A stretch of 61,833 nt of DNA, the filler included, from Nemertoderma westbladi (Eukaryota > Animalia > Xenacoelomorpha), in NCBI GenBank assembly GCA_032718475.1. It is 3 parts of 3 records of this genome, joined end to end, with 100 filler letters (N's around TTAATTAATTAA, not from the genome) between each part and the next. Parts side by side here need not be neighbours in the genome. Positions count along the whole stretch, not along the records: positions 38,852 to 61,833 come from JAUCBJ010006236.1; 2 more parts are not named here. The stretch is one strand, 5' to 3'. Within the stretch, counting starts at the first letter, position 1. Every line of letters begins with the position of its first letter. The position numbers and the translations under genes are program-made. The notes under the pieces are model-generated. The model made no database searches. It was given only the letters and a program-made list of their open reading frames with translations, and had not been told where the DNA came from. Shown piece after piece: positions 21,097 to 61,058 of the stretch.

Positions 21097-21196
21097 NNNN
21101 NNNNNNNNNNNNNNNNNNNNNNNNNNNNNNNNNNNNNNNNTTAATTAATTAANNNNNNNNNNNNNNNNNNNNNNNNNNNNNNNNNNNNNNNNNNNN
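21097..21196. other. Scaffold gap with TTAATTAATTAA spacer
   Basis: N44-ttaattaattaa-N44, identical in format to the gap at 38752-38851. Confidence 0.95.
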
Positions 21197-29000: not shown

Positions 29001-30706
29001 ATTGCTAATATTGTACATTAATTCACTGTTAGGTGAATCTATATACAAAGGAAATCCGACGGGAACTATTGAGGAGAAGGCGTTGTACAACGTGGGAGTT
29101 CGTAGAGGATGTTGGGGATTGGCTATATGGTGTATAGCTAGTTCTTTTATAAGTTCAATGTATGCGAGTATATTGTCTCGTTTCGGTGAGTTGTAATTCA
29201 TTAACATTCATATATATATCTACATGCTGTATTGAGAATACTACGACGGATTGGTAAGTTAAAGATCACCCCGCCCACTCCCCCTACACATAATATATTG
29301 TCAAAAAATTAGGCCGCCTCAATTTATTATCTCCCGTGACTGAGATTATCTAATATATTTCAATCACTTGTGTTGTATATAGGATCCAAACGTACGTACA
29401 TCTTCGGGATGCTTATCAACACATTCGGGGCTATAGTCCAGGGTTTCGCTAACAACTTCGCTATCTCCATGTTCCTCAGCTGTCTTGGGGGTTTACTCTA
29501 CACCTCAACGTTTGTCATTCCCTTCAATATCGTCGCTACATATCACTCTCACGGATTGGTTAGTGTTTACTTTATAGGACTGTCACGGATTGGTTAGTGT
29601 TTACTTTATACGATTCTCACAGATTAGTTAGTTTACTTTATGCATGCGCCACCCACGGATTGGTTAGTGTTTACTTTATACGATTCTCACAGATTAGGTA
29701 GTTTACTTTATGCGACTCCCCTCGGAGTAGTTAGTGTTTACTTTATACGACTATCATGGATTGGTTAGTTAGTACTTTATGCGCCACCCACGGATTGGTT
29801 AGTGTTTACTTTATACGACACTCACGGATTGGTTAGTGTTTACTTTATACGATTCTCACAGATTAGGTAGTTTACTTTATGCGACCCCCCTCGGAGTGGT
29901 TAGTGTTTACTTTATACGACTCTCATGGATTGGTTAGTTAGTACTTTATGCGCCTCCCACGGATTAGTTAGTGTTTACTTTATACGACACTCACGGATTC
30001 GTTAGTGTTTACTTTATACGTCTCTCACGGGTTAGGTAGTTTACTTTATGCGACTCCCCTCGGAGTGGTTAGTGTTTACTTTATACGACTCTCATGGATT
30101 GGTTAGTTAGTACTTTATGCGCCTCCCACGGATTAGTTAGTGTTTACTTTATACGACACTCACGGATTCGTTAGTGTTTACTTTATACGTCTCTCACGGG
30201 TTAGTGTTTACTTTATGCGACTATCACGGATTGGTTAGTTTATTTATACTTTATACGACTCTCACAGATTGGACAGTATACTTGACATTACTGTTATTTT
30301 ACTTTATTTTACTTGAACGGACTGCTAATTTTATATTGCAGATTAGTAATCCTTTGTTTGGAAACTACTCTAAGTCAATATATAACGTCAATATGAGATA
30401 TCTACAGTTCGCACCAGTTAATTGTTGATGGTTTTTTTGTTTTAGGGTGGGTCCCAGCCGGGAGGTAAACGAATAGCCCCCCGCGGTCTGGGAACCGATG
30501 TTGGCATAGTAACCAGTATGATGTTTGTAGCCCAGTTCACGCTCAGCCTGTTTATGGGTTCCATAGTGGAGGCGGTTGGTACCACTAGCGCCACCATGTT
30601 TACCAGCGGGATATTCAGTGGCTTAGCAGCGATAATAGCGACGAGGATAGACTACCTAGATGATTACTCCGCCAATAGCAAAGATGGCTTCCAGTTAATG
30701 GCTTAA
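23085..30706 (+). CDS. SLC45: SLC45-family (proton-associated sugar transporter/MATP-like) MFS protein. Exons: 23085-23254, 24765-25154, 26223-26370, 27005-27111, 27927-28085, 28292-28485, 29033-29185, 29383-29558, 30446-30706
   Basis: Motifs EMVYASELAFVSPLLL, W|CLSPLLGF..P.LGSLSDQCSSPIGRRRPFI, LDFSSD...IRSYLLD, FTDFVGESIYKGNP, YNVGVRRGCWGL and RGLGTD. All GT-AG junctions are phase-compatible. The start codon is uncertain. Confidence 0.9.
24083..24659. mobile_element. Tourist/PIF-Harbinger-like MITE in SLC45 intron 1
   Basis: Terminal inverted repeats aggcccggttt / aaaccgggcct plus subterminal gcactttcagc / gctgaaagtgc. Confidence 0.65.
27249..27325 (+). mobile_element. Degenerate tRNA-derived SINE head or tRNA pseudogene
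   Basis: A-box-like tggtagagcg and B-box-like gagttcaatccc, with no intact cloverleaf. Confidence 0.45.
28915..28990 (+). mobile_element. tRNA-derived SINE head, same family as 49760-49833 and 50062-50316
   Basis: cctgag...gaatggttagagcgccaga...aggtcaccagttcgatcccacc. Flanking sequence is also shared with the 49760-49890 copy. Confidence 0.6.
29545..30270 (+). repeat. ~30-34-bp tandem array (~22 copies) made from the SLC45 exon 8 donor junction
   Basis: Unit cgactctcacggattg|gttagtgtttactttata. The first copy is the real exon end and donor (29558/29559). Confidence 0.9.
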
Positions 30707-33632: not shown

Positions 33633-34055
33633 TTAATTAATATTAATTTGGTTATTTGTTTATTAATTCGTTCTTATTTTGTTATTGTTAATAATATGTT
33701 ACATTAATTTGTTTTGCGCCATAGGTACCGATACGTTGTTAATTAAAGTTACGCCCGTTCTCTCCATTTGGTCTTCATATTATCTATCCTATAACAAATT
33801 GAATTGAGATCAGCCCTTTCTTTCACTTTTAAACATTACGGGAGCTCAAATTAAGCGCCCTTATCCTTAAATAAGAACCCTCTTTAGGTGCTAATTAAAA
33901 TTAAAATTAAACGCACCTTAAATTAATTAAATAGAAGATTATCGCTACAATATTTATTAGAAATAGAAATAGTGTAAAAGTGAATATGTAATTTTGTTGA
34001 AGCAGAGTATTAAAAATATTTAAAAATTAAAGAAATTATTAATTGGAAAAAATTT

Positions 34056-36415
34056 GTGAATAATAATAAGTCCCAGATAGACCATATTCTGTTTCGTAGG
34101 AAATACAGGAGCTCTATACAAGACTGTAATGCATTTACACTTCGACCCTTCTCCAGTGATCACCGCCTTATTGTGGCCAAGGTAAGACTTAGTCTGCGTG
34201 CTAGCAGAACAACGAAATCTGCCTTGCCGCGGCATGACTGGTCCTCTCTGTTGCAACAGCCAAGTGTGAGATCCAGCTTCACATTACAGCTGAGCAACAG
34301 GTATGAGGCTCTTGCCTCTGAGGCGGCAGATCACTGTGAGGGCTATACTGCCTTTACAGAAGCAGTTAAGTTAGCAGCTGCAGAAACAGTTCCTGTATAC
34401 CCTCGAAACAGGAAAAGGGCCCCCTGGACTGACAACAAAATTCAGAAGTGCCGAAATGACCTTCATAAGGCGCAGAAAGAGTCCCGACTCAAACAGACTA
34501 CAGCGGCCAAGAATGCAGTTAAGGCTGCATCTAGGTCCCTGAACAGGCAGTACTCTATTAATCTACAGGAGCTAATAAACCAACAGGTTGATGCCATCAA
34601 TGATGCTGACGACAGCAGGCAATCATCCCAGGCATGGAAATCGATCAATTTGCTTACTGGGCGGAAAAGCCAACCAACCACCAAGGTTAAGGCTGAATCA
34701 CCAGCCGATCGCCTCAATGGTTGGAAAGCCCACTTTGAAAAGCTCCTCAATAATGACAGGGTATTGCCTGATAACTTTATAGAAGTAAAAGTGTCTGAGT
34801 CTGTACTCCCAGATATTCCCATTGGCGATATCTCCTTTGCAGAAGTGAAGGCTGCTGCAAAGAGCATTAAGACCAATCGTGCCAGTGGAGTAGATGGTGT
34901 TCCCCCTGAGGTCTTTAAAATACCTGAGTGTTTAAAGCTCATCTATCCCATCATAGTAGACATGTACCGAACAACAAGAGTTCCACAAGAAATGAAAACA
35001 AATAAGTTGGTGCCAGTTCCCAAGAAGGGCAACCTAACACTCTATGGTTCTTTTCGGGGAATCTCATTGATCTCGATTGCTGCAAAGCTATACAATAGGA
35101 TTCTATTAAATCGCATCAGGGATCCCATTGAGAGACTGCTCCGTGGAAATCAGAATGGGTTCCGTAAAGGTCGTGGGACCATGGAGCCCATTTTGGCACT
35201 TAGAAGGATAATTGAAGAATTATCAAAAAAGAAAGACAGGCACCTGGCTGTTATCTTTGTTGACTTCTTCAAGGCCTTTGATTCAGTCTCTCGCTCACGT
35301 ATGTTCAGCATACTTTCATTATATGGGATTCCTGATGAAATTATTGCAGCAATCAGATCAGTATACGATGGTTCGACAACATTTGTGTCTACTGTTGACG
35401 GTGACACAGAACCATTTGAAGTGTTATGGGGCGTCCTCCAAGGAGACACACTTGCACCATTCTTGTTCATTATTGTGGTTGACTATGTTCTACGCATGTC
35501 CTTAGATCATCATAATGATGATGGGGTGATGATAACTCCACCTACTGGCTCCAGAAGTCGAGGAAATCCTGCCAAGTACCTAACTGATCTAGACTTTGCT
35601 GATGACTTAGGAGTACTCTCAGAATCATTAGAGGGAGCCCAACGGCTCCTCAGCTCATTAGAACATGCTGCTTCTAGTGTTGGTCTTTTTATTAACTCCA
35701 GAAAGACCAAAATTTTGACAGTTAACTTTGAAAGTCCTCAGCAAGTCTCTGATCGGATGAGCATAAGCTCAAAAGATGGTATGCTTGAGCATGTGGACGA
35801 CTTCTGTTACCTGGGATCATGGATCCGGAAGTCAGGTGAGGACCTTCGAATACGTAAGGGAAAGGCATGGGCAGCCTTGAATAGGCTTTCCAGGATTTGG
35901 AAGTCACCGAGAATTAATCGGAAACTTAAGGTCCGATTATTTAGAGCAGCAGTAGTTCCAGTACTCCTCTACGGGAGTCCATGCTGGGCTCTAACTGCTG
36001 AGGACACCAAATCTCTGGATGGCACATTCACAAGAATGCTACGCCGGGTTCATTGTGTCAAGTACAATGCACACATCTCCAACCAGACACTATATAACAT
36101 TGGAGGTGTCTCATTGGTTCCCCCATGCTTGACACTAGAACAAAATCGCCTCCGCTTTGCAGGACATTGCTTTCGCCGTGAGGACCAGCCAGTGCATAAT
36201 CTTGTACTTTGGCAGCCTCATGGAGTGAATAAGCATGGTGGACAGCCCATGACTTTCTTGAGACGCATCTTAAAGGACACTGGCCTTGAAGATGCGGATG
36301 ATCTAGCAAATGTCATGGGTGATAGGGAGTTGTGGCGGTGCAATTTTGTTGACAGGCCGGCACAGCATTCTTAAAAATGCAGCTGCAATGCAGCATGCCG
36401 ATCCTAGTAGTAGTA
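34056..36415 (+). mobile_element. 5'-truncated RTE-clade-like non-LTR retrotransposon with an uninterrupted RT ORF (34056-36374)
   Basis: Endonuclease C-terminus (QIDHIL, SDHRLI), RT motifs FRGISL, QNGFR, VDFFKAFDSV, GVLQGDTLAP, FADD and YLGS, a short 3' UTR and a (TAG)n tail near 36404-36415. Confidence 0.9.
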
Positions 36416-37299
36416 TGAACACAGTTTTTGGAGCATACTACAACTGCTGACTTTTGCTGAACCAGGCTGATCAATCAGCTTATTAATAATTGCAGCCGGA
36501 TTGGATAAATTATTAATTAATTTGGGAAACTTTACTAATTAGTAAAATCGTTAATTAGTTCGATTCAAAAGATTTTAGAATAATTATTATTTGTAAAATA
36601 GTAAACCGCATTGATACACCTTGTGAATAAGGATTTGGGGGCGGGGGGGACAAAGCCCCCCCGCCAATTAGGTAATTAAGTAATTAGTTAATTACTAATT
36701 AACGGTAGGAGATACGGCATCGGCGCCAGAGACTTTTTTGTGTAGAATAAAATTCCGAACAACTTTGTGATGTTACGTTTTTTCATAGCTCTTAGTGTTT
36801 TCGAGTTACGACGCTAATTAGTTTTCGGCTAATTAGTACTAATTAACAGTAATAGGAGGGCCATAGCGATGACTGAACTTTTTTTAGATCTTACCGAGAT
36901 GAACAAAAAAAAACACCGTTGCTAGGGGAAAAACCAAATACTTTTTGAGAAAAATCAATTAGAAATCTTTAATCGCTAATTACTAATTAATTAATTAACA
37001 GATTTTTTCCACAAAAACTCCTAGCTATCGCGCTAGGGCCATCTACCAGATCGCGCAAACAGAATCGTTCTAGCTTTTGCCATTCTCCTGGAAAAATCCT
37101 TTAAAAATCGACCTAAAAAAGATCAAAGCAAAGTGCCTACTTGACAAGGGGTTCGATATAATGCTATCTTATGAGGTTTTACTTTGGTGTTTATGTTGGT
37201 TTGCTAAGTTCCGTTAAAAAGGCTGCATTATTTATTCCTCATAAGACTCTGTCGAGCCTTTGGCTCTCCAGTGGCAGCCAGACCATCCAGACCATCCAG

Positions 37300-38751
37300 T
37301 TTCTTAAATAACCGCACACATTTTGTTTCAATAGGCAACACAAAATCAGAACCGATACTGTCTCCCTGTGGAACCCCACAAGGAGCAATACTGAGCGCCA
37401 CTTTATTCCTACTTTACATTAACGACTTACCCAATTGTACAACACTTCTAGCAACCCTATTCGCAGACGACACTAACCTACTTTACAGCCATACAGACCC
37501 GACCATACTGACTGACACTGTAAACACAGAACTCCAAAAGGTCGAACAATGGCTTACTGACAATCAGCTCTCTTTAAACCTTAAAAAAACAGAACACCTA
37601 ATTTTTACATTTAAAAAGGAACCTATAAATAACAATATAAATATGCAAAACTTACCAATCAAGAAAGTAACTCAAACAAAATTTTTAGGAATATGGATAG
37701 ATAACAAACTTACATGGAAAAATCACTGCGCGTATGTACTAAAAAAAATCTCAAAATCTATAGGTATATTCTTCAAATTACGTCACATCCTACCATTAGG
37801 CATTATGAAATTACTTTACTACGCTTTGATACAACCATATATTACGTACGGTATAGTGATCTGGGGAACTGCTAAACATGTTCATATTAATCCGATTAAA
37901 ACTAAAATAAACAAATTAATTAGAGCAATTACCTTCAGTCACTACCGGAAACATGCACCACCACTATACAGACAATTAAATATACTACCTATAGACAAAT
38001 TACACATACTTGAAACAGCTAAACTAATCTGGGAAATCCGTAATAACAAAAAACGATCTTTTATAACATCATTGTTCCAACAAACATCCACTTTACATAC
38101 TTACAATACTCGATCAACGACACGCCAAAACTACTTTATACCTCGGACCCGACTATTACTAACTCAAAATTCATTAAAATATCACGGCGCCATTGTCTGG
38201 AACTCCTTAGACACCGACATAAAACAAAGCAAATCGAAAAAAACACTAGGTAGGAAACTAAAAATCAAATTAATTAATGAACTACAGTAAAAACAAAAAT
38301 GATATAAATTAAATACAAATAAATATCAAACCTAATCTTCCAAAAAATAACAATTTAATTATTTACAACAGATATCACAGGTAAAAAATAGTTGGAATAC
38401 AACTATTGGTTATGGTTATGGATATGGCAGAATTGAACTTAGTAGTGGCTGGCGGCATCCCTTGAAATTCTCCCCCCCCCCCCCCCCTCCCCCACCCACC
38501 CCTGATTGACCGATGGCAGCAACCGGCATTACTAGCTACCGCTACTGTCAGTTCCTGCCAGGGCACATAAACATAATAGCACACAAAAAAATTGCAGAAC
38601 ATACAAACAAATTTGAAATGCTCTCAAGGTGAATTATATTTTAATTTGTTTTGTGAACTACTGTTTATTTAAATATTGTCTGTAAATTGTGTGCGGTCAC
38701 TCTGGAACAAAATATAAGAGCCCTTACAGGCTCACATCAATCAATCAATCA
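37300..38751 (+). mobile_element. 5'-truncated L2/CR1-group LINE (RT C-terminal half to 38290, 3' UTR, (TCAA)n tail)
   Basis: GTPQGAILSATLFLLYINDL, FADDT, KFLGIWIDNKLTW and HTYNTRS; ends in atcaatcaatcaatca before the gap. Confidence 0.85.
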
Positions 38752-38851
38752 NNNNNNNNNNNNNNNNNNNNNNNNNNNNNNNNNNNNNNNNNNNNTTAAT
38801 TAATTAANNNNNNNNNNNNNNNNNNNNNNNNNNNNNNNNNNNNNNNNNNNN
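38752..38851. other. Scaffold gap with TTAATTAATTAA spacer
   Basis: N44-ttaattaattaa-N44. Confidence 0.95.
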
Positions 38852-41800
38852 CAGGTATTGCGGGCTCTGCTACTCTCCTTATTAGTACCTACTGTAGGCC
38901 GACAGTATAATATTACTCATATACTTTAGGTATCCATATCGCCAGGTATTGCGGGCTCTGCTACTCTCCTTATTAGTACCTACTGTAGGCCGACAGTATA
39001 ATATTCCCCATATACTTTAGGTATCCATATCGCCAGGTATTGCGGGCTCTGCTACTCTCCTTATTAGTACCTACTGTAGGCCGACAGTATAATATTCCTC
39101 ATATACTTTAGGTATCCATATCGCCAGGTATTGCGGGCTCTGCTACTCTCCTTATTAGTACCTACTGTAGGCCGACAGTATAATATTACTCATATACTTT
39201 AGGTATCCATATCGCCAGGTATTGCGGGCTCTGCTACTCTCCTTATTAGTACCTACTGTAGGCCGACACTATAATATTACTCATATACTTTAGGTATCCA
39301 TATCGCCAGGTATTGCGGGCTCTGCTACTCTCATTATTAGTACCTACTGTAGGCCGACAGTATAATATTCCCCATATACTTTAGGTATCCATATCGCCAG
39401 GTATTGCGGGCTCTGCTACTCTCCTTATTAGTACCTACTGTAGGCCGACAGTATAATATTCCCCATATACTTTAGGTATCCATATCGCCAGGTATTGCGG
39501 GCTCTGCTACTCTCCTTATTAGTACCTACTGTAGGCCGACAGTATAATATTACTCATATACTTTAGGTATCCATATCGCCAGGTATTGCGGGCTCTGCTA
39601 CTCTCCCTATTAGTACCTACTGTAGGCCGACACTATAATATTACTCATATACTTTAGGTATCCATATCGCCAGGTATTGCGGGCTCTGCTACTCTCCTTA
39701 TTAGTACCTACTGTAGGCCGACAGTATAATATTCCCCATATACTTTAGGTATCCATATCGCCAGGTATTGCGGGCTCTGCTACTCTCCTTATTAGTACCT
39801 ACTGTAGGCCGACAGTATAATATTACTCATATACTTTAGGTATCCATATCGCCAGGTATTGCGGGCTCTGCTACTCTCCTTATTAGTACCTACTGTAGGC
39901 CGACAGTATAATATTCCCCATATACTTTAGGTATCCATATCGCCAGGTATTGCGGGCTCTGCTACTCTCATTATTAGTACCTACTGTAGGCCGACAGTAT
40001 AATATTCCCCATATACTTTAGGTATCCATATCGCCAGGTATTGCGGGCTCTGCTACTCTCCCTATTAGTACCTACTGTAGGCCGACAGTATAATATTACT
40101 CATATACTTTAGGTATCCATATCGCCAGGTATTGCGGGCTCTGCTACTCTCCTTATTAGTACCTACTGTAGGCCGACAGTATAATATTCCCCATATACTT
40201 TAGGTATCCATATCGCCAGGTATTGCGGGCTCTGCTACTCTCCTTATTAGTACCTACTGTAGGCCGACAGTATAATATTCCCCATATACTTTAGGTATCC
40301 ATATCGCCAGGTATTGCGGGCTCTGCTACTCTCCTTATTAGTACCTACTGTAGGCCGACAGTATAATATTCCCCATATACTTTAGGTGTCCATATCGCCA
40401 GGTATTGCGGGCTCTGCTACTCTCCTTATTAGTACCTACTGTAGGCCGACAGTATAATATTACTCATATACTTTAGGTATCCATATCGCCAGGTATTGCG
40501 GGCTCTGCTACTCTCCTTATTAGTACCTACTGTAGGCCGACAGTATAATATTCCCCATATACTTTAGGTGTCCATATCGCCAGGTATTGCGGGCTCTGCT
40601 ACTCTCCTTATTAGTACCTACTGTAGGCCGACAGTATAATATTACTCATATACTTTAGGTATCCATATCGCCAGGTATTGCGGGCTCTGCTACTCTCCTT
40701 ATTAGTACCTACTGTAGGCCGACAGTATAATATTCCCCATATACTTTAGGTGTCCATATCGCCAGGTATTGCGGGCTCTGCTACTCTCATTATTAGTACC
40801 TACTGTAGGCCGACAGTATAATATTACTCATATACTTTAGGTATCCATATCGCCAGGTATTGCGGGCTCTGCTACTCTCCTTATTAGTACCTACTGTAGG
40901 CCGACAGTATAATATTCCCCATATACTTTAGGTGTCCATATCGCCAGGTATTGCGGGCTCTGCTACTCTCCTTATTAGTACCTACTGTAGGCCGACAGTA
41001 TAATATTACTCATATACTTTAGGTATCCATATCGCCAGGTATTGCGGGCTCTGCTACTCTCCTTATTAGTACCTACTGTAGGCCGACAGTATAATATTCC
41101 CCATATACTTTAGGTGTCCATATCGCCAGGTATTGCGGGCTCTGCTACTCTCCTTATTAGTACCTACTGTAGGCCGACAGTATAATATTCCCCATATACT
41201 TTAGGTATCCATATCGCCAGGTATTGCGGGCTCTGCTACTCTCCTTATTAGTACCTACTGTAGGCCGACAGTATAATATTCCCCATATACTTTAGGTATC
41301 CATATCGCCAGGTATTGCGGGCTCTGCTACTCTCCTTATTAGTACCTACTGTAGGCCGACAGTATAATATTCCCCATATACTTTAGGTGTCCATATCGCC
41401 AGGTATTGCGGGCTCTGCTACTCTCATTATTAGTACCTACTGTAGGCCGACAGTATAATATTACTCATATACTTTAGGTATCCATATCGCCAGGTATTGC
41501 GGGCTCTGCTACTCTCCTTATTAGTACCTACTGTAGGCCGACAGTATAATATTCCCCATATACTTTAGGTGTCCATATCGCCAGGTATTGCGGGCTCTGC
41601 TACTCTCCTTATTAGTACCTACTATAGGCCGTCAGTATAATATTACTCATATACTTTAGGTATCCATATCGCCAGGTATTGCGGGCTCTGCTACTCTCCT
41701 TATTAGTACCTACTGTAGGCCGACAGTATAATATTCCCCATATACTTTAGGTGTCCATATCGCCAGGTATTGCGGGCTCTGCTACTCTCCTTATTAGTAC

Positions 41801-44707
41801 CTACTGTAGGCCGACAGTATAATATTACTCATATACTTTAGGTATCCATATCGCCACGTATTGCGGGCTCTGCTACTCTCCTTATTAGTACCTACTGTAG
41901 GCCGACAGTATAATATTACTCATATACTTTAGGTATCCATATCGCCAGGTATTGCGGGCTCTGCTACTCTCATTATTAGTACCTACTGTAGGCCGACAGT
42001 ATAATATTACTCATATACTTTAGGTGTCCATATCGCCAGGTATTGCGGGCTCTGCTACTCTCATTATTAGTACCTACTGTAGGCCGACAGTATAATATTA
42101 CTCATATACTTTAGGTATCCATATCGCCAGGTATTGCGGGCTCTGCTACTCTCCTTATTAGTACCTACTGTAGGCCGACAGTATAATATTCCCCATATAC
42201 TTTAGGTGTCCATATCGCCAGGTATTGCGGGCTCTGCTACTCTCCTTATTAGTACCTACTGTAGGCCGACAGTATAATATTACTCATATACTTTAGGTAT
42301 CCATATCGCCAGGTATTGCGGGCTCTGCTACTCTCCTTATTAGTACCTACTGTAGGCCGACAGTATAATATTCCCCATATACTTTAGGTGTCCATATCGC
42401 CAGGTATTGCGGGCTCTGCTACTCTCATTATTAGTACCTACTGTAGGCCGACAGTATAATATTCCCCATATACTTTAGGTATCCATATCGCCAGGTATTG
42501 CGGGCTCTGCTACTCTCCTTATTAGTACCTACTGTAGGCCGACAGTATAATATTCCCCATATACTTTAGGTATCCATATCGCCAGGTATTGCGGGCTCTG
42601 CTACTCTCCTTATTAGTACCTACTGTAGGCCGACAGTATAATATTCCCCATATACTTTAGGTGTCCATATCGCCAGGTATTGCGGGCTCTGCTACTCTCA
42701 TTATTAGTACCTACTGTAGGCCGACAGTATAATATTACTCATATACTTTAGGTATCCATATCGCCAGGTATTGCGGGCTCTGCTACTCTCCTTATTAGTA
42801 CCTACTGTAGGCCGACAGTATAATATTCCCCATATACTTTAGGTGTCCATATCGCCAGGTATTGCGGGCTCTGCTACTCTCCTTATTAGTACCTACTATA
42901 GGCCGTCAGTATAATATTACTCATATACTTTAGGTATCCATATCGCCAGGTATTGCGGGCTCTGCTACTCTCCTTATTAGTACCTACTGTAGGCCGACAG
43001 TATAATATTCCCCATATACTTTAGGTGTCCATATCGCCAGGTATTGCGGGCTCTGCTACTCTCCTTATTAGTACCTACTGTAGGCCGACAGTATAATATT
43101 ACTCATATACTTTAGGTATCCATATCGCCACGTATTGCGGGCTCTGCTACTCTCCTTATTAGTACCTACTGTAGGCCGACAGTATAATATTACTCATATA
43201 CTTTAGGTATCCATATCGCCAGGTATTGCGGGCTCTGCTACTCTCATTATTAGTACCTACTGTAGGCCGACAGTATAATATTACTCATATACTTTAGGTA
43301 TCCATATCGCCACGTATTGCGGGCTCTGCTACTCTCCTTATTAGTACCTACTGTAGGCCGACAGTATAATATTACTCATATACTTTAGGTATCCATATCG
43401 CCAGGTATTGCGGGCTCTGCTACTCTCCTTATTAGTACCTACTGTAGGCCGACAGTATAATATTACTCATATACTTTAGGTATCCATATCGCCAGGTATT
43501 GCGGGCTCTGCTACTCTCCTTATTAGTACCTACTGTAGGCCGACAGTATAATATTCCCCATATACTTTAGGTATCCATATCGCCAGGTATTGCGGGCTCT
43601 GCTACTCTCCTTATTAGTACCTACTGTAGGCCGACACTATAATATTACTCATATACTTTAGGTATCCATATCGCCAGGTATTGCGGGCTCTGCTACTCTC
43701 CTTATTAGTACCTACTGTAGGCCGACAGTATAATATTACTCATATACTTTAGGTATCCATATCGCCAGGTATTGCGGGCTCTGCTACTCTCCTTATTAGT
43801 ACCTACTGTAGGCCGACACTATAATATTACTCATATACTTTAGGTATCCATATCGCCAGGTATTGCGGGCTCTGCTACTCTCATTATTAGTACCTACTGT
43901 AGGGCGACAGTATAATATTACTCATATACTTTAGGTATCCATATCGCCAGGTATTGCGGGCTCTGCTACTCTCCTTATTAGTACCTACTGTAGGCCGACA
44001 GTATAATATTACTCATATACTTTAGGTATCCATATCGCCAGGTATTGCGGGCTCTGCTACTCTCCTTATTAGTACCTACTGTAGGCCGACAGTATAATAT
44101 TACTCATATACTTTAGGTATCCATATCGCCAGGTATTGCGGGCTCTGCTACTCTCCTTATTAGTACCTACTGTAGGCCGACAGTATAATATTACTCATAT
44201 ACTTTAGGTATCCATATCGCCAGGTATTGCGGGCTCTGCTACTCTCCTTATTAGTACCTACTGTAGGCCGACACTATAATATTACTCATATACTTTAGGT
44301 ATCCATATCGCCAGGTATTGCGGGCTCTGCTACTCTCCTTATTAGTACCTACTGTAGGCCGCCAGTATAATATTCCCCATATACTTTAGGTGTCCATATC
44401 GCCAGGTATTGCGGGCTCTGCTACTCTCCTTATTAGTACTGTACCTACTGTAGGCCGACAGTATAATATTACTCATATACTTTAGGTGTCCATATCGCCA
44501 GGTATTGCGGGCTCTGCTACTCTCATTATTAGTACCTACTGTAGGCCGACAGTATAATATTACTCATATACTTTAGGTATCCATATCGCCAGGTATTGCG
44601 GGCTCTGCTACTCTCCTTATTAGTACCTACTGTAGGCCGACAGTATAATATTACTCATATACTTTAGGTATCCATATCGCCAGGTATTGCGGGCTCTGCT
44701 ACTCTCC
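38852..44707 (+). repeat. 91-bp tandem array (64 acceptor copies visible, running into the gap) made from an intron 3' end plus the exon start of the clavesin-like gene
   Basis: Unit gtatccatatcgccaggtattgcgggctctgctactctcc-ttattagtacctactgtaggccgacagtataatattactcatatactttag. The last copy continues as coding exon 44668-44797. Confidence 0.97.
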
Positions 44708-46768
44708 CTTGAGAAGATTTCCGACGATTCGGTAAATTGTTTGTTGCCATACAAAGTCGTGTTCATCGTCGATTTCGTTTCTTTTACATTCGATCAGGTG
44801 ATTACGCCATCTAGTGGGTGATTGTCGCATTGAATTATAATTTTAAATATTGCAGTATATCGGTAGGCCAAAAGTTATAAGGCCCTATGAAGATGAAGTA
44901 ACGCAATTTTTATAATATTACAGTACGCGGGGTGTTTTAAATTATTTGTAATGTGCCATATTGGAATATAATGCGCTAAACGCTACACTTGCTGCCTATA
45001 ATGTCAAGTAATATTGACAATTTATACAAAAGATATAGGCCTTCAAAGACATGTAAAAGTACAATTTACAAATCTAATGTAAGAAATATATCATAAGAAA
45101 TAATTATTACGTTTTAGAATTTATCACGATCAATAATTCGGTATTATATTAATTTAGCTGAATTATTATTATATTTATCAATATTTTTCTACTTTTTAAT
45201 TTCGTAGGCCAATATATTTTTCCTATCTTTCATTTCGTTTTAATTATTTTAGGCTAAAGAACTAACAGTGCGGGAACTGAAACTAACTGTAGACGCCCTT
45301 GAAGATAGTCTACCAATAGTTATAGATGAAGTTCATCTAATAAACCCGCCGTGGTTTATGCAGGCGGCGTTGGCTATGATTAGGCCATTTCTAAACACCA
45401 GATCCAAAGAAAAGGTTAGAATTCTGGTGGTACACCACAATTCCATAAAGTTTGCCACGGAGTTGGTGTAGTTTACCGCTATTCGCTCACTATTCGGCGT
45501 TTGCAGTGGTACCATACCGAATGCCCATCGGCACATTATGCCTAATTGCACAATATAATGCACATAGAATGCATTTAAACTAACTATTTTGCCTCAAGTT
45601 TTCGAACAACCTCTCCAGTCTGCATAAACTCATATTTGTTTTAGATTCACAAACATTCGAACAACCTCTCCAGTCTGCATAAACTCATATTTGTTTTAGA
45701 TTCACAAACATTCGAACAACCTCTCCAGTCTGCATAAACTCCTATTTGTTTTAGATTCACAAACATTCGAACAACCTCTCCAGTCTGCATAAACTCATAT
45801 TTGTTTTAGATTCACAAACATTCGAACAACCTCTCCAGTCTGCATAAACTCCTATTTGTTTTAGATTCACAAACATTCGAACAACCTCTCCAGTCTGCAT
45901 AAACTCATATTTGTTTTAGATTCACAAACATTCGAACAACCTCTCCAGTCTGCATAAACTCATATTTGTTTTAGATTCACAAACATTCGAACAACCTCTC
46001 CAGTCTGCATAAACTCATATTTGTTTTAGATTCACAAACATTCGAACAACCTCTCCAGTCTGCATAAACTCATATTTGTTTTAGATTCACAAACATTCGA
46101 ACAACCTCTCCAGTTTGCATAAACTCATATTTGTTTTAGATTCACAAACATTCGAACAACCTCTCCAGTCTGCATAAACTCCTATTTGTTTTAGATTCAC
46201 AAACTTTCGAACAACCTCTCCAGTCTGCATAAACTCCTATTTGTTTTAGATTCACAAACATTCGAACAACCTCTCCAGTCTGCATAAACTCATATTTGTT
46301 TTAGATTCACAAACATTCGAACAACCTCTCCAGTCTGCATAAACTCCTATTTGTTTTAGATTCACAAACATTCGAACAACCTCTCCAGTCTGCATAAACT
46401 CCTATTTGTTTTAGATTCACAAACATTCGAACAACCTCTCCAGTCTGCATAAACTCCTATTTGTTTTAGATTCACAAACATTCGAACAACCTCTCCAGTC
46501 TGCATAAACTCCTATTTGTTTTAGATTCACAAACATTCGAACAACCTCTCCAGTCTGCATAAACTCCTATTTGTTTTAGATTCACAAACATTCGAACAAC
46601 CTCTCCAGTCTGCATAAACTCCTACCGCGAGAGAATTTACCGGCTGATTTGGGGGGCCTTCGGCCGCCGTGTCAGCAGGATGCGTGGGCGTGGAGACTGA
46701 TATATAGCCAATACTGGGTTCCCAATAGCCAAAGAACAGAGGACGAAAAGCCCATATGGGAAGCCTAA
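44668..46768 (+). CDS. Clavesin/CRALBP (RLBP1)-like CRAL-TRIO lipid-binding protein, last three exons (44668-44797, 45253-45414, 46580-46768); 5' exons not visible
   Basis: Spliced YPYRQVLRALLLSLEKISDDSVNCLLPYKVVFIVDFVSFTFDQ|AKELTVRELKLTVDALEDSLPIVIDEVHLINPPWFMQAALAMIRPFLNTRSKEK|IHKHSNNLSSLHKLLPRENLPADLGGLRPP...WEA* is colinear with recalled clavesin motifs (LRAILLSLE, VHFVNQPW, KPFL, NNLNSLH, LPSEFGG). Confidence 0.88.
45601..46624 (+). repeat. 55-bp tandem array (18 acceptor copies) made from the terminal-exon acceptor junction of the clavesin-like gene
   Basis: Unit tttgttttag|attcacaaacattcgaacaacctctccagtctgcataaactc(c/a)ta. The last copy opens the final exon at 46580. Confidence 0.97.
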
Positions 46769-49019
46769 CCCTCTATAACTTTGTAAACGATGTCTAGGCC
46801 TACTGCATGTTGTACTGTACAGTAGTAGTAAAATTAAAATCTGTTGTAAGCCAGCCGCATTTTGTTTTGTATGTCATTCGTCATTGGCTTATTATTTTAT
46901 TCCAAAATTAAACATTACTTTACACAACTAGTATTGACATCGGAAACATGGGGGAATATTGACGCAAATCTCATCTTAGTAAATTAAGATGATTAATTAT
47001 CAATTTATGGAAAGGAACAGGTTACATTGGCTATTGGCATGGTATTCTACCATAAAAGCAGTCATTGACTGTTTACAGTTTCATTTTTCGAACGGAGATT
47101 GGACGCGTAAATAAACACTCTCGTGAGTAAAGTTTGCTCTGCGGACCCATTTTGCTTGGCCAGCAAGATTCACATTTCCCGTTAATTCAGTGACACTGAG
47201 GCTTTGGGGCTAGGGTTACAGTTTGGGCTTCTCAGAGCGAACTCTTTATGTTTATACGGGGTGTTAGAATACCATTGAGTTTTATCGGTTTTTGCGACAC
47301 GTCTGGGGTGAGCGAGGTGAGCGTCTCGAAGGGAGACGATCTGAATGGTTATTTTTAAAAAATTCTTACAAATTAATGATTGAGAATTGTTTGTGATTAT
47401 GAAACGTATTAAATTATATTGGATAATTTAAATTATATATACTCATTGTTTGGTTTCATACTTATGAGGCTAATATTATATTCATAAATAATTATAATTC
47501 ATACATAAACACAATATTATAGAATATAGTGTATTAATTAAATATATTAAATAACCTGCAGCGGAAATAAAAACATGCAGTTTTCTTATACGGCGCACTA
47601 TTCAGCTTTTATGAACCTTGTGTATTTATGTATACCTTCCTCGCAGCGCTCGCTCGGTTCACAAATACACTCAAATTTTCATTTCACACAATGTTATAAA
47701 TAGTTATTGTTATACGGGTGAATGAGAGGGTGAATGAATAATGAGCTCATGAATCCGCAATATCAACGGGAAAAATTCGGACCAGTTTACCCGTTGTTTC
47801 CGAATCCGTGTTGGTTTTTAACAAATCCATTGGCAGTAATTTTAACATAATGTAGGTGTGACCGCAAATCTAAGGGCACCACCCTAAGGTTTGTCGCAAT
47901 TTTAGTTACTTTAGAGGAAGAGTTTATTACAGTAGTTAGTCCCTGTAATACTATATTTAATATTACATGGTTAGTCCTATTCAGACTGTTGGCGCTATTT
48001 TTCTGATGTTGAGGTGGTTGCAGTCGACATTGATGGTGCCTCTCCGGGAGGAATTTTTCCCCTGTAGCGACCACCGGGCCGCCCTCCTCTTGCTCCTTAT
48101 CATCTCCTCTAAATAAGGATACTCAATTATGTTTCATATATAAACTTTCAGGTCTCTGTCGGTATGATAGGTCTGTTTCATTACTTGGGATAGCAACCTG
48201 CCTGATTATATAATTTCCTACCCGCAGACTCTCTTTGTTTGTTATAATACTTTTTCTAATTGTTTTTTGGAAAATGGCCTTTCTCAATTACAACTCGTGC
48301 CCTCCTATTTAGGTAATGTGTTAGTCCAAGTATTTTTGAATCAATTATTGTTGCTGACATTTTTACTTACCAACCGTTCTCCAAAAGCGACCATACTGTA
48401 TTTCTGTCTACTTCAGTGTTGTCTGTCAAAATTTTATTATTAATTAATTTTATTAAATTCTATTCAGATTTGTATATTGGTTTTAAAAATTCTGATAATG
48501 TTGGTTTTTCTATTTATTTAAATAATTTTATATTTAACTGCAAATCAATATATAATATATACTGTGTCAATGATATACTAGGAAATTTGTGAAGGTGCAC
48601 TCAAACGGGCATCTCGAAATTTCTCCCTAGGGTGTCTCTAAAGCCGCAATTAAAAATAAAATTATTACCATCGTAAAAAGCAAAAAGCGGCAGTGGCGGC
48701 GCAGACCCACCCGTAGCCGTATCAACAAATACAAACTTTGCGCTAAGTTGGCCTCCAAAGAAAGCGGCACACAGGGGAGCCGAAAGAACTTTTCATGCCG
48801 AAAGTAAGATTCTTAACTCTTGTAAATCATAACACACTATTCAAATAAATGTTAATTCTAGGCGTATATAAGGCTTGGATTCCAGGCCTTTAACATAATG
48901 GTGAGATGATTATTTTCGACAAAACATAAAAGCTGATATTTATCACGGATCTTAAAGATTTACAATGGATATCAAATTTTACCGAATATTCCACTCTTTA
49001 ATGGTTCTTCTATCAGTTC

Positions 49020-50632: not shown

Positions 50633-52747
50633 ATGGATTATCCTACGGTTCGAAGGGATTCCACACTATCCTACTCACTTGGAGATCGGAAAATAGACGA
50701 TCCTTACTTGTGGCTGGAAGATCCTGAGGCCGAAGAAACTAAAGAATTTGTGACCAAACAAAATCAGATCACTAATTCGTACCTAGAAGCCAATGGCAGT
50801 TCAATTCGCGAAAATTATAAGAACAAACTCACTAAACTCTGGGACTTCGAAAAATACGGTTCTCCTTTTAGAAAAGGTGATAATTATTTTTATTACCATA
50901 ATAGTGGACTTCAAAATCAATATGTTCTTTACAAACAAAGCTCGCTTTCTGAGAAAGGAGTTGCTTTTATAGACCCGAATGAGATTGCAGCAGACGGTAG
51001 CATATCGCTTACGTCCCTGTCGTTCAGTGAGGATGGTGCCATATGCGCTTATGGACTCAGCGAGAAAGGATCCGATTGGTCTACGGTTTATTTCCGAACT
51101 GTGGCGACAGGGGAGAACCTCCCGGACAAACTCGAGCGGGTCAAGTACAGCTGTCTGGAGTGGACGCACGACGGGGCTGGAGTCTTCTACAACACGTACT
51201 CCTTGGAGCAGGGAGAGGCCACCGGTAAGTCAACCACCAAGAACGAGAACCAACTACTGCGTTACCACGTGTTGGGTTCGGAGCAGTCCGCGGACGTCCT
51301 GTGCGCCGAGGAACCCGACCACCCTACGTGGATGGTGTACGCCGAGGTAACGGATTGCGGTAACTACGTCGTAGTAACCACGCACCATGGTTGCGAACCT
51401 TCAAACCAGCTGCATATCTGCGATCTCAGAAAGACAGGCGGCAAGATAACAGGCCGTTTGGAGTGTCTCTCTATTGTGGATAATTTCGAATCGAGTTACG
51501 ACTACGTCGCTAATGACGGACCGTTATTTGCCTTTAAGACAAATTCCGGCGCTCCGAATAATAAAATCGTTACTATCGATATTTCCTCGGATAGTCGGGA
51601 GTTTTCCGACCTAATTCCCACCTGCGACGACCCCTTGGACTGGGTGGTCTGCTGCGACCGCGACAAACTGCTGCTCTGTTACCTACACGACGTAAAGAGT
51701 GAGTTGTTCGTCCACGACCTGCGAACCGGCGGCAGACTGTTCGCGATCCCCTTGGACGTAGGCACGGTGCACGGTTGCTCCGGGGATCGCAAGTACAGCG
51801 AGGTGTTCTTTAAGTTCGTCTCCTTTTTGACCCCGGGTCGCACTTTCCGGGTGGATTTCTCCGAGTCGGAAGTTAAACCGACTCTCTTCCGAGAGACCGC
51901 AGTAGACGGATTCGACTCTGATTTATTCCGAGTCACTCAGGTTTTCTATAATTCCAAGGATTCCACTAGAATCCCCATGTTTATAGTCCACAAGAAGGAT
52001 ATCCTTTTAGACGGAAGCAACCCAACTAAGATCTACGCTTACGGAGGTTTCAATGTATCTATTAAACCGCATTTTAGTATCTCTATCATTCCGTGGATGT
52101 TGAATCTCGGTGGGGTTTACGCGGTGGCCAACGTCCGCGGCGGCGGGGAGTACGGGAGGGATTGGCGAGACGCCGGTTCGAATCTCAACAAGAAGAATAG
52201 TTTCGAGGATTTAGAAGCGGCCGCTGAGTACCTTATAGACGCGGGATACACCGCCAGCGACCGGTTGGTGCTGACCGGGGGCTCGGGCGGCGGTCTGGTT
52301 GTCGCAGCCACTATAAACCGGCGTCCCGGGCTCTACAAGGCCTGCGTGTCCCACGTCGGGGTTATGGACATGCTGCGGTACAACCGGTTCACCATCGGGC
52401 CCGCTTGGGTATCGGATTACGGGGACCCCGCCAGCCCCGAGTTCTACGAATATATCCGCAGTTACTCCCCGTTGCACAACGTGCCTTCCGGCGACGTTGA
52501 CTACCCCGCTATGTTGTTGGCTACCAGCGACCACGACGACCGAGTGTCGCCGCTCCATTCCTATAAGCTCATCTCCGAGCTGCAGTATAAGCTGGGCGCC
52601 ACTTCGGGACAGAAGAACCCTTTGCTTATTCGGATAGAAACAAAGGCCGGTCACGGTTTCGGTAAACCAACCACCAAGATTATAGAGGAGTTATCGGATT
52701 GTGACACTTTTCTAGCGACTACTTTAGGGCTGAAATGGATTGGCTAG
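50633..52747 (+). CDS. PREP: Prolyl oligopeptidase (peptidase S9A), intronless CDS
   Basis: MDYPTVRRD, DPYLWLEDP, YAYGGF, NVRGGGEYG, catalytic GGSGGG, HDDRV and KAGHG. ATG 50633 matches the family N-terminus, whereas the upstream ORF extension is non-homologous. Confidence 0.95.
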   Translation: MDYPTVRRDSTLSYSLGDRKIDDPYLWLEDPEAEETKEFVTKQNQITNSYLEANGSSIRENYKNKLTKLWDFEKYGSPFRKGDNYFYYHNSGLQNQYVLYKQSSLSEKGVAFIDPNEIAADGSISLTSLSFSEDGAICAYGLSEKGSDWSTVYFRTVATGENLPDKLERVKYSCLEWTHDGAGVFYNTYSLEQGEATGKSTTKNENQLLRYHVLGSEQSADVLCAEEPDHPTWMVYAEVTDCGNYVVVTTHHGCEPSNQLHICDLRKTGGKITGRLECLSIVDNFESSYDYVANDGPLFAFKTNSGAPNNKIVTIDISSDSREFSDLIPTCDDPLDWVVCCDRDKLLLCYLHDVKSELFVHDLRTGGRLFAIPLDVGTVHGCSGDRKYSEVFFKFVSFLTPGRTFRVDFSESEVKPTLFRETAVDGFDSDLFRVTQVFYNSKDSTRIPMFIVHKKDILLDGSNPTKIYAYGGFNVSIKPHFSISIIPWMLNLGGVYAVANVRGGGEYGRDWRDAGSNLNKKNSFEDLEAAAEYLIDAGYTASDRLVLTGGSGGGLVVAATINRRPGLYKACVSHVGVMDMLRYNRFTIGPAWVSDYGDPASPEFYEYIRSYSPLHNVPSGDVDYPAMLLATSDHDDRVSPLHSYKLISELQYKLGATSGQKNPLLIRIETKAGHGFGKPTTKIIEELSDCDTFLATTLGLKWIG

Positions 52748-58052: not shown

Positions 58053-61000
58053 ATGATATTCCAATATTTTCTCGCGATTTACTTTGTCGGTTCCCTGATA
58101 CCCGGTAATCAAGGCGACCGTGACGTATTATACGACACGTTCAACCAACCCTCCAAACTCCAATGGACCGCGTACTCGTCGCCCCAGGACAAGGACAACG
58201 GGGCCAGATACGGCTGGGTGGAGGTCTCCAAGTACGACGAATCTGGTCGCTCAACCTCCCGCGCTTACCAGGTCTGCGACATCACCAACGACAAGAAGGA
58301 CCACTGGGTTCGAACTCGCTACATATCCCGCGAGAAAGCCACCAACATAAAGATAAACATTATATTCTCTATGATGGATTGCAGCAGTTTGCAAGCGGAA
58401 GAGGTAAAATCCGCAGTTAATAAAGTCTGCAAGGAGACTTTCGATCTCTACTACTTCGAGGCCAATCCCGGAGTAATCCCTTCCGTGGATCACCCAGGAT
58501 TCAAAAAGATCGCCAAAGTAGCGGGTGAGGGATTCCACGAAGGGAAAAACGCGATAAACAATAAAACCTTCGAGATTTCGGATTTAACTCAGCAGGGATT
58601 CTACTTGGCCTTCCACGATGAGGGTTCCTGTACCGGGATCCAGCGGCTCTACGTTTACTACAACTTCTGTCCCGCGATGACGACCAATCTGGCCGAGTTC
58701 CCGCGGACCGCCACGGACACCGGCGGATACCAAGTGGTCACCATCGTGGAGGGCCGCTGCGTGAAGCGAGCAGCGTCCGACTCGCAGCGGGCCCCCGTGG
58801 CGCACTGCACCTCCAAGGGGGATTGGTACGAGTTCCAGGGCGGTCTCGAGGGCTGCGAGTGCATCCAGGGCCACGAGCCGGGCGCGGACGGAACCACCTG
58901 CAACACCTGCCCCACCGGTTTCTACAAACCCTCGTACGGGAACACCGCCTGTCTGCGTTGCCCGCCGCACTCTGAGTCGCTCAACCCCGGCTCTACCAGC
59001 TGTAAGTGCACCCCGGGGTTCTACCGCGGCGCGCGGGATTCCGTGCCCGACGCGTGCGCCAGCCCGCCCTCGGAACCGCGCAATCTCACCGCCTCGGTGC
59101 AGCGAACCGTAGTCCTCCTCGCGTGGGAGCCCCCGGTTAACGACGGCGGTCGCGGCGACCTCTCCTACTACGTGGAGTGTCCGCTGTGCGACCACGGCGT
59201 CCTATGGGATCCCTCGCGTACGCGGATCCTCGGTACCAACGTCACCGTGACCCATCTAACCCCCGAGACTCGCTACACCTTCCGGGTCTTCTCCGAGAAC
59301 GGAGTCTCTCAGTTCGCTAAATCCACCGAGACGTTGTTCAGCGCTATCTCGGTCTCCACCGGGGAGGCTGTCAGCATCGCCAACCTCTCCGTGACTAACT
59401 TCACATCGACGTCGGTATCTTTGCGATGGTCGGCGCCTAATTATCCAGCGGAGGAGATCCTCGGTTACATCGTGAGGGTGTTCCATCGTGACCGCCACGA
59501 CGGGTACCACAGCGACCTCTCTGTGAACACGACGCACGCGGTGGTCGGGGAACTGAACCCCGAGCACGAGTACACCTTCCAGGTGGGCGTCGACATCCAC
59601 GGCGGCTTCGGGAAGTTCTCGGATCCGGTCTCGGCGCCCCGCTCCGGCACCGGGGGCGCCTCCGAGTCGAACCATCGGCACGACGGCGTCGCCAACATCT
59701 TCACGGCCCACACCGGGATCATCATCGGGGTGAGCGCCTCCGTGGTCGTCCTCATCGTGGTCGTCTGCATCATCCTGGTGGCGGTGATCCGTAAGACCCG
59801 CGGGTACAAACACGTGGACTCGTTGGAGGGCTTCCGGGGGACCGAGATGAAGCTCCCGGTGCGATCCGATCGGGTCTACGTGGATCCGCACACGTACGAG
59901 GACCTCGGACAGGCCGTGCGGGAGTTCGCGAAGGAGATCGACGTCTCCTTGGTCGCGATACACAGCGTCATCGGAGGCGGCGAGTTCGGGGATGTCTGCA
60001 AGGGACTGCTGAAGACCAACGATAAGAACCAACAGTTGAAAGCCGTCGCGATAAAAACCTTAAAAACGGGATCCTCGGATAAGAATATTAAGGATTTCCT
60101 CGCGGAGGCTTCGATAATGGGGCAGTTCAACCACTGCAACGTCATCTACCTCGAGGGCGTCGTGACTAAGTCGCAGCCGGTTATGATAATCACCGAGTTT
60201 ATGGAGAACGGCGCGTTAGATCAATTCCTGAGGGGCAACGACGGTAAGTTAACGCCTATTCAGTTGGTCGGTATGCTCAGGGGGGTCGCCTGCGGGATGG
60301 AGTACCTCTCCGATATGGGCTACATCCATAGGGATTTAGCGGCGCGGAATATCATAGTGAGCGCGAGTTTGGTCTGCAAGGTGGCCGACTTCGGGTTGTC
60401 GCGGGTGCTGGACGGGTCCTCCGGGTGTCGGGAGTACACGACGCACGGCGGGAAGGTACCGGTGCGGTGGACCGCCCCCGAGGCGATCGCCTTCAGGAAG
60501 TTCACCTCGGCGAGCGATGTGTGGAGTTACGGGATCGTGGGATGGGAGGCCATGAGCTTCGGGGAGCGCCCCTACTGGGACTGGAGCAACCACGACGTTA
60601 TCAAGGCGGTGGACGGGGGCTACAGGCTGCCGCCCCCCATGGATTGCCCCGACGCGATCTACACGCTCATGGTGGAGTGTTGGCACCAGGAGCGGTCGAA
60701 TCGCCCGCGGTTCGCGGACATCCGTCAACGACTCGATCGGATCATACGGAATCCCGCGATGCTCAACTACGTGGCCCAGCGTCGCTTCGATAGCGTCTCC
60801 CGCGCGCAGGAGCCCGTGTCCTTCGACTGCGTCGTTCACATAGAGGATTTCCTGCGGGTTATTAAGATGGACCGCTACCTAGACGTGTTTGAGGAGGCCG
60901 GGTGCGTGAGTCTGGACGAACTGCGGGACCTGAACGTCCAGAAACTCGTCGATATGGGGATCACCCTGATAGGCCATCAGAAGAAGATACTGTCGAACAT

Positions 61001-61058
61001 TCAGGCGCTTCGAGCTTATTTCGAGAACTTGGAACGGGAATCCGAGATAGAATGCTAA
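58053..61058 (+). CDS. Eph: Eph receptor tyrosine kinase, full length (1001 aa), intronless CDS
   Basis: Signal peptide, ephrin-binding domain (GWVEVS, YQVC, CKETFDLYY), Cys-rich region, two FN3 domains, TM helix, YVDPHTYED juxtamembrane motif, kinase (GGGEFG, HRDLAARN, DFG, RWTAPE) and SAM domain. Confidence 0.97.
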   Translation: MIFQYFLAIYFVGSLIPGNQGDRDVLYDTFNQPSKLQWTAYSSPQDKDNGARYGWVEVSKYDESGRSTSRAYQVCDITNDKKDHWVRTRYISREKATNIKINIIFSMMDCSSLQAEEVKSAVNKVCKETFDLYYFEANPGVIPSVDHPGFKKIAKVAGEGFHEGKNAINNKTFEISDLTQQGFYLAFHDEGSCTGIQRLYVYYNFCPAMTTNLAEFPRTATDTGGYQVVTIVEGRCVKRAASDSQRAPVAHCTSKGDWYEFQGGLEGCECIQGHEPGADGTTCNTCPTGFYKPSYGNTACLRCPPHSESLNPGSTSCKCTPGFYRGARDSVPDACASPPSEPRNLTASVQRTVVLLAWEPPVNDGGRGDLSYYVECPLCDHGVLWDPSRTRILGTNVTVTHLTPETRYTFRVFSENGVSQFAKSTETLFSAISVSTGEAVSIANLSVTNFTSTSVSLRWSAPNYPAEEILGYIVRVFHRDRHDGYHSDLSVNTTHAVVGELNPEHEYTFQVGVDIHGGFGKFSDPVSAPRSGTGGASESNHRHDGVANIFTAHTGIIIGVSASVVVLIVVVCIILVAVIRKTRGYKHVDSLEGFRGTEMKLPVRSDRVYVDPHTYEDLGQAVREFAKEIDVSLVAIHSVIGGGEFGDVCKGLLKTNDKNQQLKAVAIKTLKTGSSDKNIKDFLAEASIMGQFNHCNVIYLEGVVTKSQPVMIITEFMENGALDQFLRGNDGKLTPIQLVGMLRGVACGMEYLSDMGYIHRDLAARNIIVSASLVCKVADFGLSRVLDGSSGCREYTTHGGKVPVRWTAPEAIAFRKFTSASDVWSYGIVGWEAMSFGERPYWDWSNHDVIKAVDGGYRLPPPMDCPDAIYTLMVECWHQERSNRPRFADIRQRLDRIIRNPAMLNYVAQRRFDSVSRAQEPVSFDCVVHIEDFLRVIKMDRYLDVFEEAGCVSLDELRDLNVQKLVDMGITLIGHQKKILSNIQALRAYFENLERESEIEC

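Follow-up and report, generated by a model that had tools for sequence, protein, structure and literature searches.

Which 3' splice site is used when an intron ends in eighteen nearly equivalent acceptors, each followed by a copy of the same piece of exon? The question is raised by a 55-bp tandem array in the last intron of a gene that, judged by its predicted protein, is a CRAL-TRIO (CRALBP/alpha-TTP-like) lipid-carrier gene. The gene lies in the window, by which we mean the whole stretch of 61,833 nt that was analyzed. The window consists of three contigs joined by linkers (N44 + TTAATTAATTAA + N44) at 21097-21196 and 38752-38851, and two genes with a linker between them are not necessarily genomic neighbours. 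Mirages, which are tandem duplications of an intron/exon boundary, have been described in the lancelet genes for Adh3, globin, troponin C and PGBD5 (PMC3087553, PMC3902484; papers cited here by PMC number are represented by excerpts of their text). We consider it likely that the 55-bp array is a mirage minisatellite within the last CRAL-TRIO intron, from which assembled transcripts join only to the last, authentic acceptor, and that the array is a by-product of unstable repeats that is tolerated.

Tandem Repeats Finder placed the array at 45601-46624 (18.6 copies, 98% matches, 0% indels, score 1971). When aligned in register, the array resolved into a 44-nt partial unit, 17 full units and the start of the authentic exon. 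Its intronic part (45601-46579, plus strand, like all features of the gene given below), which is supported by Tandem Repeats Finder, by the register and by DNA contigs, holds the partial unit and the 17 full units, and with them 17 decoy acceptors and the authentic acceptor at 46579. Each unit consists of ATTCAC...CTC(C/A)TA, equal to positions +1 to +45 of the terminal exon, and then TTTGTTTTAG, which corresponds to the 3'-terminal 10 nt of the intron; the composition of 45 nt of exon and 10 nt of intron proposed in a first-pass annotation of this DNA was therefore borne out by the register alignment. The TTTTAG acceptors were spaced exactly 55 nt apart without exception (18/18), with AG ends at 45644, 45699 and onward to 46579. 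The first 45 nt of the terminal exon (46580-46624), the template of the exon part of the unit, were identical to the CTCCTA-type units (units 13-17).

Variation among the 17 full units was confined to three sites, namely A/C at position 43 and two single-unit changes (C>T in unit 9 and A>T in unit 11). The CTCATA variant was found in units 1, 3, 5-9 and 12 and in the partial unit, and the CTCCTA variant in units 2, 4, 10, 11 and 13-17 and in the exon. Each 20-mer of the unit occurred 17-18 times (9-10 times where the variant site was included), and a search of both strands of the window found none of them outside the array or on the minus strand. The sequence 5' of 45601 contained no significant decayed unit, the best local alignment score of 17 being equalled in 51 of 300 shuffles. 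Rfam and tRNA scans detected nothing in or near the array, and the sole match that they returned in the window was a tRNA-Leu at 6403-6485.

To answer which acceptor is used, five public runs (X1-X5) were analyzed as 31-mer contigs, a form in which rare variants are lost. None of the runs is recorded as RNA. We treated X4 and X5, which come from different studies, as transcript assemblies because they contain joints with GT..AG ends and cover exons only, and because these joints are absent in X1-X3. A joint between 45414 and 46580, with 1165 nt skipped and GT..AG ends, was present in X4 contig 17 (436 nt, depth 193) and in X5 contig 19 (1279 nt, depth 30). Both spliced contigs (2/2) used the last acceptor and none used a decoy, which fixes the boundary at 46579|46580 and the last intron at 45415-46579 (1165 nt). 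Both contigs also continued unbroken past 46624/46625, where RNA spliced to a decoy would diverge, and apart from the crossing joint the interior of the array (45631-46539) had no cover in X4 or X5. None of the contigs of the DNA-like X1, X2 and X3 runs contained the joint, indicating that a retrocopy is unlikely, and the intron flanks were present in these runs. The gene model of the first-pass annotation, with its authentic acceptor at 46579, thus agrees with the joint in X4 and X5, its positions for the first acceptor (45644), the last acceptor (46579) and the end of the reading frame (46768) were all correct, and the dominant use of the first acceptor that it had named as the alternative was not seen.

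The array itself was recovered in the DNA contigs of X1, X2 and X3, both at its flanks and at the junction from unit to unit. The left flank was bridged by contigs covering 44680-45630 (X2) and 44684-45630 (X3), and the right flank, 46595-46974, by contigs of X1, X2 and X3. Contigs of 81 nt carrying the unit-to-unit junction showed 0 differences and reached depths of 128, 521 and 366, as compared with 27-31 in the flanks. The resulting array/flank ratios were approximately 4 (X1), 17 (X2) and 13 (X3), and they are not equal to copy number, depth being split among variant-specific contigs.

The exons on either side of the array agree with this use of the last acceptor. The penultimate coding exon (45253-45414, 54 codons), covered by X4 contig 17 and X5 contig 19, encodes the CRAL-TRIO core: it matched Pfam CRAL_TRIO (PF00650) with an E-value of 4.1e-9 (36.9 bits against a cut-off of 22.6) over profile positions 78-126 of 153, and in the PDB it matched residues 214-261 of CRALBP and residues 176-221 of alpha-TTP (E 2e-5). 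The coding part of the terminal exon (46580-46768) is an open reading frame of 62 codons plus TAA with an LPADLGG end, and is likewise covered by the X4 and X5 contigs. Its residues 2-26 matched profile positions 130-153 of 153, a match that is weak when taken alone (E 0.29). The two profile segments, 78-126 from the penultimate exon and 130-153 from the terminal exon, are contiguous with the last acceptor only. Searched by itself, the terminal-exon peptide matched only one unrelated chain in the PDB (E 1.2), and in a set of 5.8 billion proteins, searched for longer proteins, it returned one candidate and none that was scored. The 3' untranslated region extends from 46769 to 46881, up to the ends of the spliced contigs (46844 for X4 contig 17 and 46881 for X5 contig 19), and ATTAAA occurs in the 3' region at 46833, approximately 255 nt 3' of the last acceptor, and at 46907.

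The X4 and X5 contigs differed from the window at 46663 (G>A), at 46792 (G>C) and by one base missing at 46789, and X5 differed also at 45288 (T>A). By codon reading, these differences are synonymous or lie in the untranslated region. They could reflect another allele or individual, or allele-biased expression. The same positions (46663, 46789, 46792 and 45288) also separate X4 and X5 from the DNA contigs of X1-X3, and X4 has a sample label in common with X1 and X2 despite the allele differences.

Since the authentic acceptor is the one joined, we asked what could set it apart from the others. The first-pass annotation had described the acceptors as locally near-equivalent, and acceptors 15-18 were indeed identical from -110 to +45. 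Whatever decides between them must therefore be sought within the exon, from position +46 onward. We infer that the last of several identical acceptors would be chosen by definition of the terminal exon or by exonic enhancers, and not by the acceptor itself. Candidate discriminators are the purine-rich GAGAGAA at +50 to +56 (46629-46635) and the position of the last acceptor, which is the nearest to the ATTAAA at 46833. RNA structure was considered as a discriminator and rejected: the predicted unpaired probability over -20 to +3 was 0.44 for the last acceptor and 0.37-0.55 for the other 17, so that accessibility is no different and information in the downstream exon is left as the distinguishing factor.

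The array also constrains the branch point. The only A in the intronic part of the unit, TTTGTTTTAG, belongs to the AG, and for 979 nt 5' of the authentic acceptor the sequence is array throughout, which places the branch point in exon-derived sequence, as had been proposed from the sequence alone. The branch adenosine of the authentic acceptor would thus come from a copy of coding exon. YNYTRAY is the branch-site consensus, and a scan with it predicted three candidate adenosines, at 46563 (CATAAAC, -17), 46541 (TTCGAAC, -39) and 46533 (CACAAAC, -47), all three agreeing with the consensus at 6 of 7 positions, and there is an internal AG at -28. A perfect branch-site-like CTAAC is present at 45580-45584, 17 nt 5' of the start of the array. 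It may, speculatively, be an ancestral branch site that has been displaced by approximately 1 kb from the acceptor in use.

As for how the array arose, it probably began with a tandem duplication spanning the 3' splice junction, after which slippage or unequal exchange came into play. The copies sit on the intron side of the acceptor in use and are removed with the intron, which would explain why the array persists. The 17 upstream acceptors are likely to be silent or nearly silent decoys, and the array as such is most likely without function. The first-pass annotation had further suggested a polar homogenization from the exon, based on the change from CTCATA at the 5' side to CTCCTA at the 3' side. 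Such a gradient does exist, though it is weak (rank test, p = 0.027, 9 vs 9 non-independent units). It could stem from exchange with the exon copy that is under selection, and local duplication of the kind ordinary in minisatellites accounts for it just as well, since neighbouring units are not independent.

Several points weigh against the reading of the array as a tolerated mirage spliced at its last acceptor. In the human transcriptome, competing 3' splice sites at least 20 nt apart favour the upstream site overall, and in the excerpted text this preference is only weakened under exon definition (PMC9225289); use of the last acceptor is therefore not trivially expected. The 5' edge of the array falls in mid-unit (unit position 12), which the simplest one-step duplication does not predict. 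The expressed allele differs from the window and may not carry the same 18-copy array. The RNA status of X4 and X5 is itself inferred and not recorded, minor use of decoy acceptors would go unseen in contigs that lose rare variants, and the copy number is beyond the reach of 31-mer contigs.

The same gene contains a second array of this kind. In the preceding intron, a 91-bp mirage array occupies 38852-44707 (64.3 copies, 97% matches by Tandem Repeats Finder), its unit consisting of 51 nt of intron end and the first 40 nt of the exon at 44668-44797. At least 64 copies are present, the 5' side being cut by the end of the contig (the N linker ends at 38851). The array contained 48 exact TTTAGGTATCC acceptor words, the last of them at the authentic exon start, 44668. 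The exon that follows, an internal coding exon of 130 nt (44668-44797), matched letters 687-814 of X5 contig 19 with 0 differences, and in that contig it starts at 44668, directly after the last TTTAG of the array. The last acceptor is therefore used at the 55-bp and the 91-bp arrays alike, indicating the same rule at two arrays of one gene. Downstream, X5 contig 19 joins 44797 to 45253, with 455 nt skipped and GT..AG ends. Each 91-bp unit also holds CAG|GTATTG, which is an AGGT, and an upstream acceptor of this array would read into the TAG of the next TTTAG. The first-pass annotation apparently took the 91-bp array for a ratchet; what we found is an acceptor array of the same kind as the 55-bp one. 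The exon (44669-44797) matched no Pfam family by itself. The 686 letters of the X5 contig 5' of the exon at 44668 are not in the window (0 matches for the 30 letters preceding 44668): the N-terminal exons of the gene fall outside the window, the third contig of which starts inside the 91-bp array.

Two further arrays at possible junctions were observed in the window. In another contig, a 34-bp array at 29545-30272 (approximately 21 copies, 76% matches) has its start at what is predicted to be the donor of an MFS-like exon (CACGGATTG|GTTAGT); the exon end and donor are repeated, and there are 12 G|GTTAGT words in total. From its reading frame, and with weak Pfam support, this array looks like a donor-side mirage; the MFS-like exon (29340-29558) searched alone matched no Pfam family. 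A 46-bp array at 7168-7437 (5.9 copies) has a unit with a donor-like AAAAG|GTGTAAGTGAGT, and no exon was identified beside it.

A broader reading can be built on two RNA-verified acceptor arrays in consecutive introns and a third array at a predicted donor, all within 62 kb. It holds that mirages, instead of being random minisatellites that chance to span a junction, owe their origin to a mutational process tied to splice junctions, and that they obey a strict, oriented rule, in which the copy nearest the exon body always wins (the last acceptor in the present gene, the first donor in human F7). We regard this as improbable. If it were true, acceptors identical from -110 to +45 would be told apart from the exon side alone, and the arrays would be natural reporters of 3' splice-site choice driven by exon definition in a non-model animal lineage outside lancelets.

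A less probable alternative is that the upstream acceptors of the 55-bp array are used appreciably, giving a stable mRNA that escapes nonsense-mediated decay dependent on the exon junction complex, and a protein that ends in ...FVLDSQTFEQPLQSA and is devoid of the LPADLGG end. A stop codon in the last exon has no junction 3' of it, which counts in favour of such an escape. The 17 upstream acceptors do have the authentic local context, and each opens into 30 codons followed by TAA, as the first-pass annotation had foreseen; the exact peptide that it predicted is obtained from 15 of the 17, and the other two differ by one residue (acceptor 8 ends in ...PLQFA and acceptor 11 starts with IHKLS). 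Rare isoforms would also be missed by the contigs. The truncated product nevertheless stays a prediction, no contig using any of the 17 acceptors. At the locus, the unit-to-unit junction occurred in 0 contigs of X4 (n = 2) and of X5 (n = 4), and the spliced contigs, with their depths of 193 and 30, were unbranched through 46624/46625. Moreover, the truncated product would lose the end of a conserved CRAL_TRIO domain, and published mirages are reported, in the excerpted text, to be without aberrant mRNAs (PMC3087553, PMC3902484).

Slightly less probable again is a function for the array, in which decoy acceptors or binding sites for U2AF or U2 slow or tune the removal of the last intron and copy number serves as a dial. 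Two alternative 3' splice sites can be occupied together, and "concurrent occupancy inhibits splicing" according to the excerpted text of Chen et al. 2016 (PMC5389562). The presence of arrays in two consecutive introns of the CRAL-TRIO gene and the 98% homogeneity of the units would suit such a device. However, homogeneity is also expected of a minisatellite that is young or actively exchanging, and we saw no sign of any effect on expression. Similar arrays are described in unrelated genes (PMC3087553, PMC3902484, as excerpted), for which a mutational by-product is a better explanation than a gene-specific device. That the repeat was created or over-expanded by the assembler is very improbable: in its favour, the window is a composite of three contigs, one assembly contig is broken at the neighbouring 91-bp array and 31-mer contigs give no check on copy number, but the unit-to-unit junction recurs with 0 differences and at the high depths given above in the contig sets of two studies, and both flank junctions are also in contigs.

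The reading that we prefer, a tolerated mirage spliced at its last acceptor, is also supported by the likeness of the array to the published cases. It is a head-to-tail array of minisatellite size, its unit runs across the authentic intron/exon boundary and includes the splice signal, and of all copies it is the authentic one, at the edge of the exon, that enters the mRNA, with regular splicing kept in 2/2 spliced contigs. In lancelet mirages, as here, a head-to-tail repeat combines the 3' end of an intron with the 5' part of the exon that follows, the authentic copy borders the exon, normal splicing persists and the variant units are clustered within the array. According to Ebner et al. (PMC3087553), mirages leave splicing undisturbed, and the same is reported for Adh, TnC and PGBD5 (PMC3902484), in both cases in the excerpted text. 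Ebner et al., who cite Canestro et al. 2002 for Adh3, call the mechanism of origin unclear and describe concerted evolution within the arrays; their globin examples are BflGb6, with a mirage of the 3' boundary type, and BflGb9 (PMC3087553, as excerpted). The dimensions differ. The unit here is 55 bp with 10 nt of intron and is present in 18 copies (at least 64 in the sister array), whereas BflGb6 has units of 150-160 bp in 3-6 copies (PMC3087553, in the excerpt). Length polymorphism has been shown for the published lancelet mirages (PMC3087553, PMC3902484, as excerpted). Unlike those mirages, the present one has a host that is apparently not a lancelet or other cephalochordate, and a cephalochordate host is not a defining feature of the class. 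In the literature searched, the term mirage in this sense of splice sites, tandem repeats and introns occurred in lancelet work only, and a search on tandemly duplicated acceptors found nothing relevant.

The closest parallel with a donor is the 37-bp variable number tandem repeat in intron 7 of human F7, the first element of which lies across the exon 7/IVS7 boundary (Borensztajn et al. 2006, PMC1557585). In F7, as in the CRAL-TRIO gene, a splice site is multiplied into identical silent pseudo-sites, and splicing takes place only at the copy bordering the exon. What F7 multiplies is the donor, of which 5'-to-3' scanning selects the copy farthest upstream (PMC1557585, in its excerpted text); in the present gene it is the acceptor, and the copy farthest downstream is selected.

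Three other systems share features with the array. Recursive splice sites, or ratchet points, are juxtaposed AG|GT sites at which an acceptor regenerates a donor, and like the decoys here they are acceptor-like sites within an intron, 5' of the authentic acceptor. This class was ruled out: AGGT occurs 0 times in 45601-46634, as the first-pass annotation had noted, so that splicing to a decoy regenerates no donor and stepwise removal is impossible. Duplicated splice sites were reportedly studied by Reed and Maniatis in 1986. In NAGNAG-type tandem acceptors, several acceptors likewise compete for one donor; no more than 9 nt separate them, and the choice among them is made during the second catalytic step, with a single branch point serving them all (PMC9225289, as excerpted). 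The 55-nt spacing rules out such subtle tandem acceptors here, and it means that no two acceptors can share a branch point or a pyrimidine tract. In the Rogers model, introns are gained by tandem duplication across AG/GT proto-splice sites (discussed in PMC3087553, as excerpted). Both there and here, a tandem duplication with splice signals yields sequence that is removed as intron; unlike in that model, no new intron has arisen in the CRAL-TRIO gene, and an existing one has been lengthened by approximately 1 kb.

Other features were observed around the gene and elsewhere in the window. Just 3' of the CRAL-TRIO gene, 46993-47031 contains an approximately 35-nt dispersed repeat of high copy number, with a summed contig depth of 4531 in X2 and 2454 in X3, as compared with approximately 30 in the flanks, and with many different loose ends on both sides. 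An uninterrupted open reading frame of 704 codons at 50633-52747 encodes a prolyl endopeptidase, assigned to the Peptidase_S9 family by its relatives. Among the matches listed, its relatives, from a nemertean, molluscs, a cnidarian, echinoderms and vertebrates, were at most 53% identical, and none of the 120 matches listed was a lancelet. Because the best relatives are only approximately 53% identical, the frame is either an intronless gene or a retrocopy. A complete Eph receptor occupies 58053-61058 in one open frame of approximately 1000 codons, with Ephrin_lbd, cysteine-rich (CRD), fn3, transmembrane, tyrosine kinase and SAM domains. Eph receptor genes are normally split into many exons, and a single-frame copy is unusual. 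Together with the CRAL-TRIO gene, this receptor identifies the host as an animal. The middle contig carries LINE-like (long interspersed nuclear element) reverse-transcriptase frames at 34014-36374 (RVT_1, E 1e-28) and 37208-38290 (RVT_1, E 1e-12).

The 55-bp array belongs to a repeat class that has already been described and is little studied. What is somewhat special about it is the tiny share of intron in its unit, the presence, in consecutive introns, of one acceptor array with 18 copies and another with at least 64, and the apparently non-lancelet host. For annotation, the locus implies that gene finders facing 18 or approximately 64 identical acceptors may pick the wrong one and predict a truncated protein. 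It also presents a natural experiment, in which four acceptors that are identical from -110 to +45 are told apart and the branch point would have to lie in a copy of coding exon, and it offers a well-defined system in which to ask which features outside the acceptor determine the choice of a 3' splice site. The locus would be the acceptor-side counterpart of the donor array in human F7, and the case adds to the signs that mirages occur beyond lancelets.

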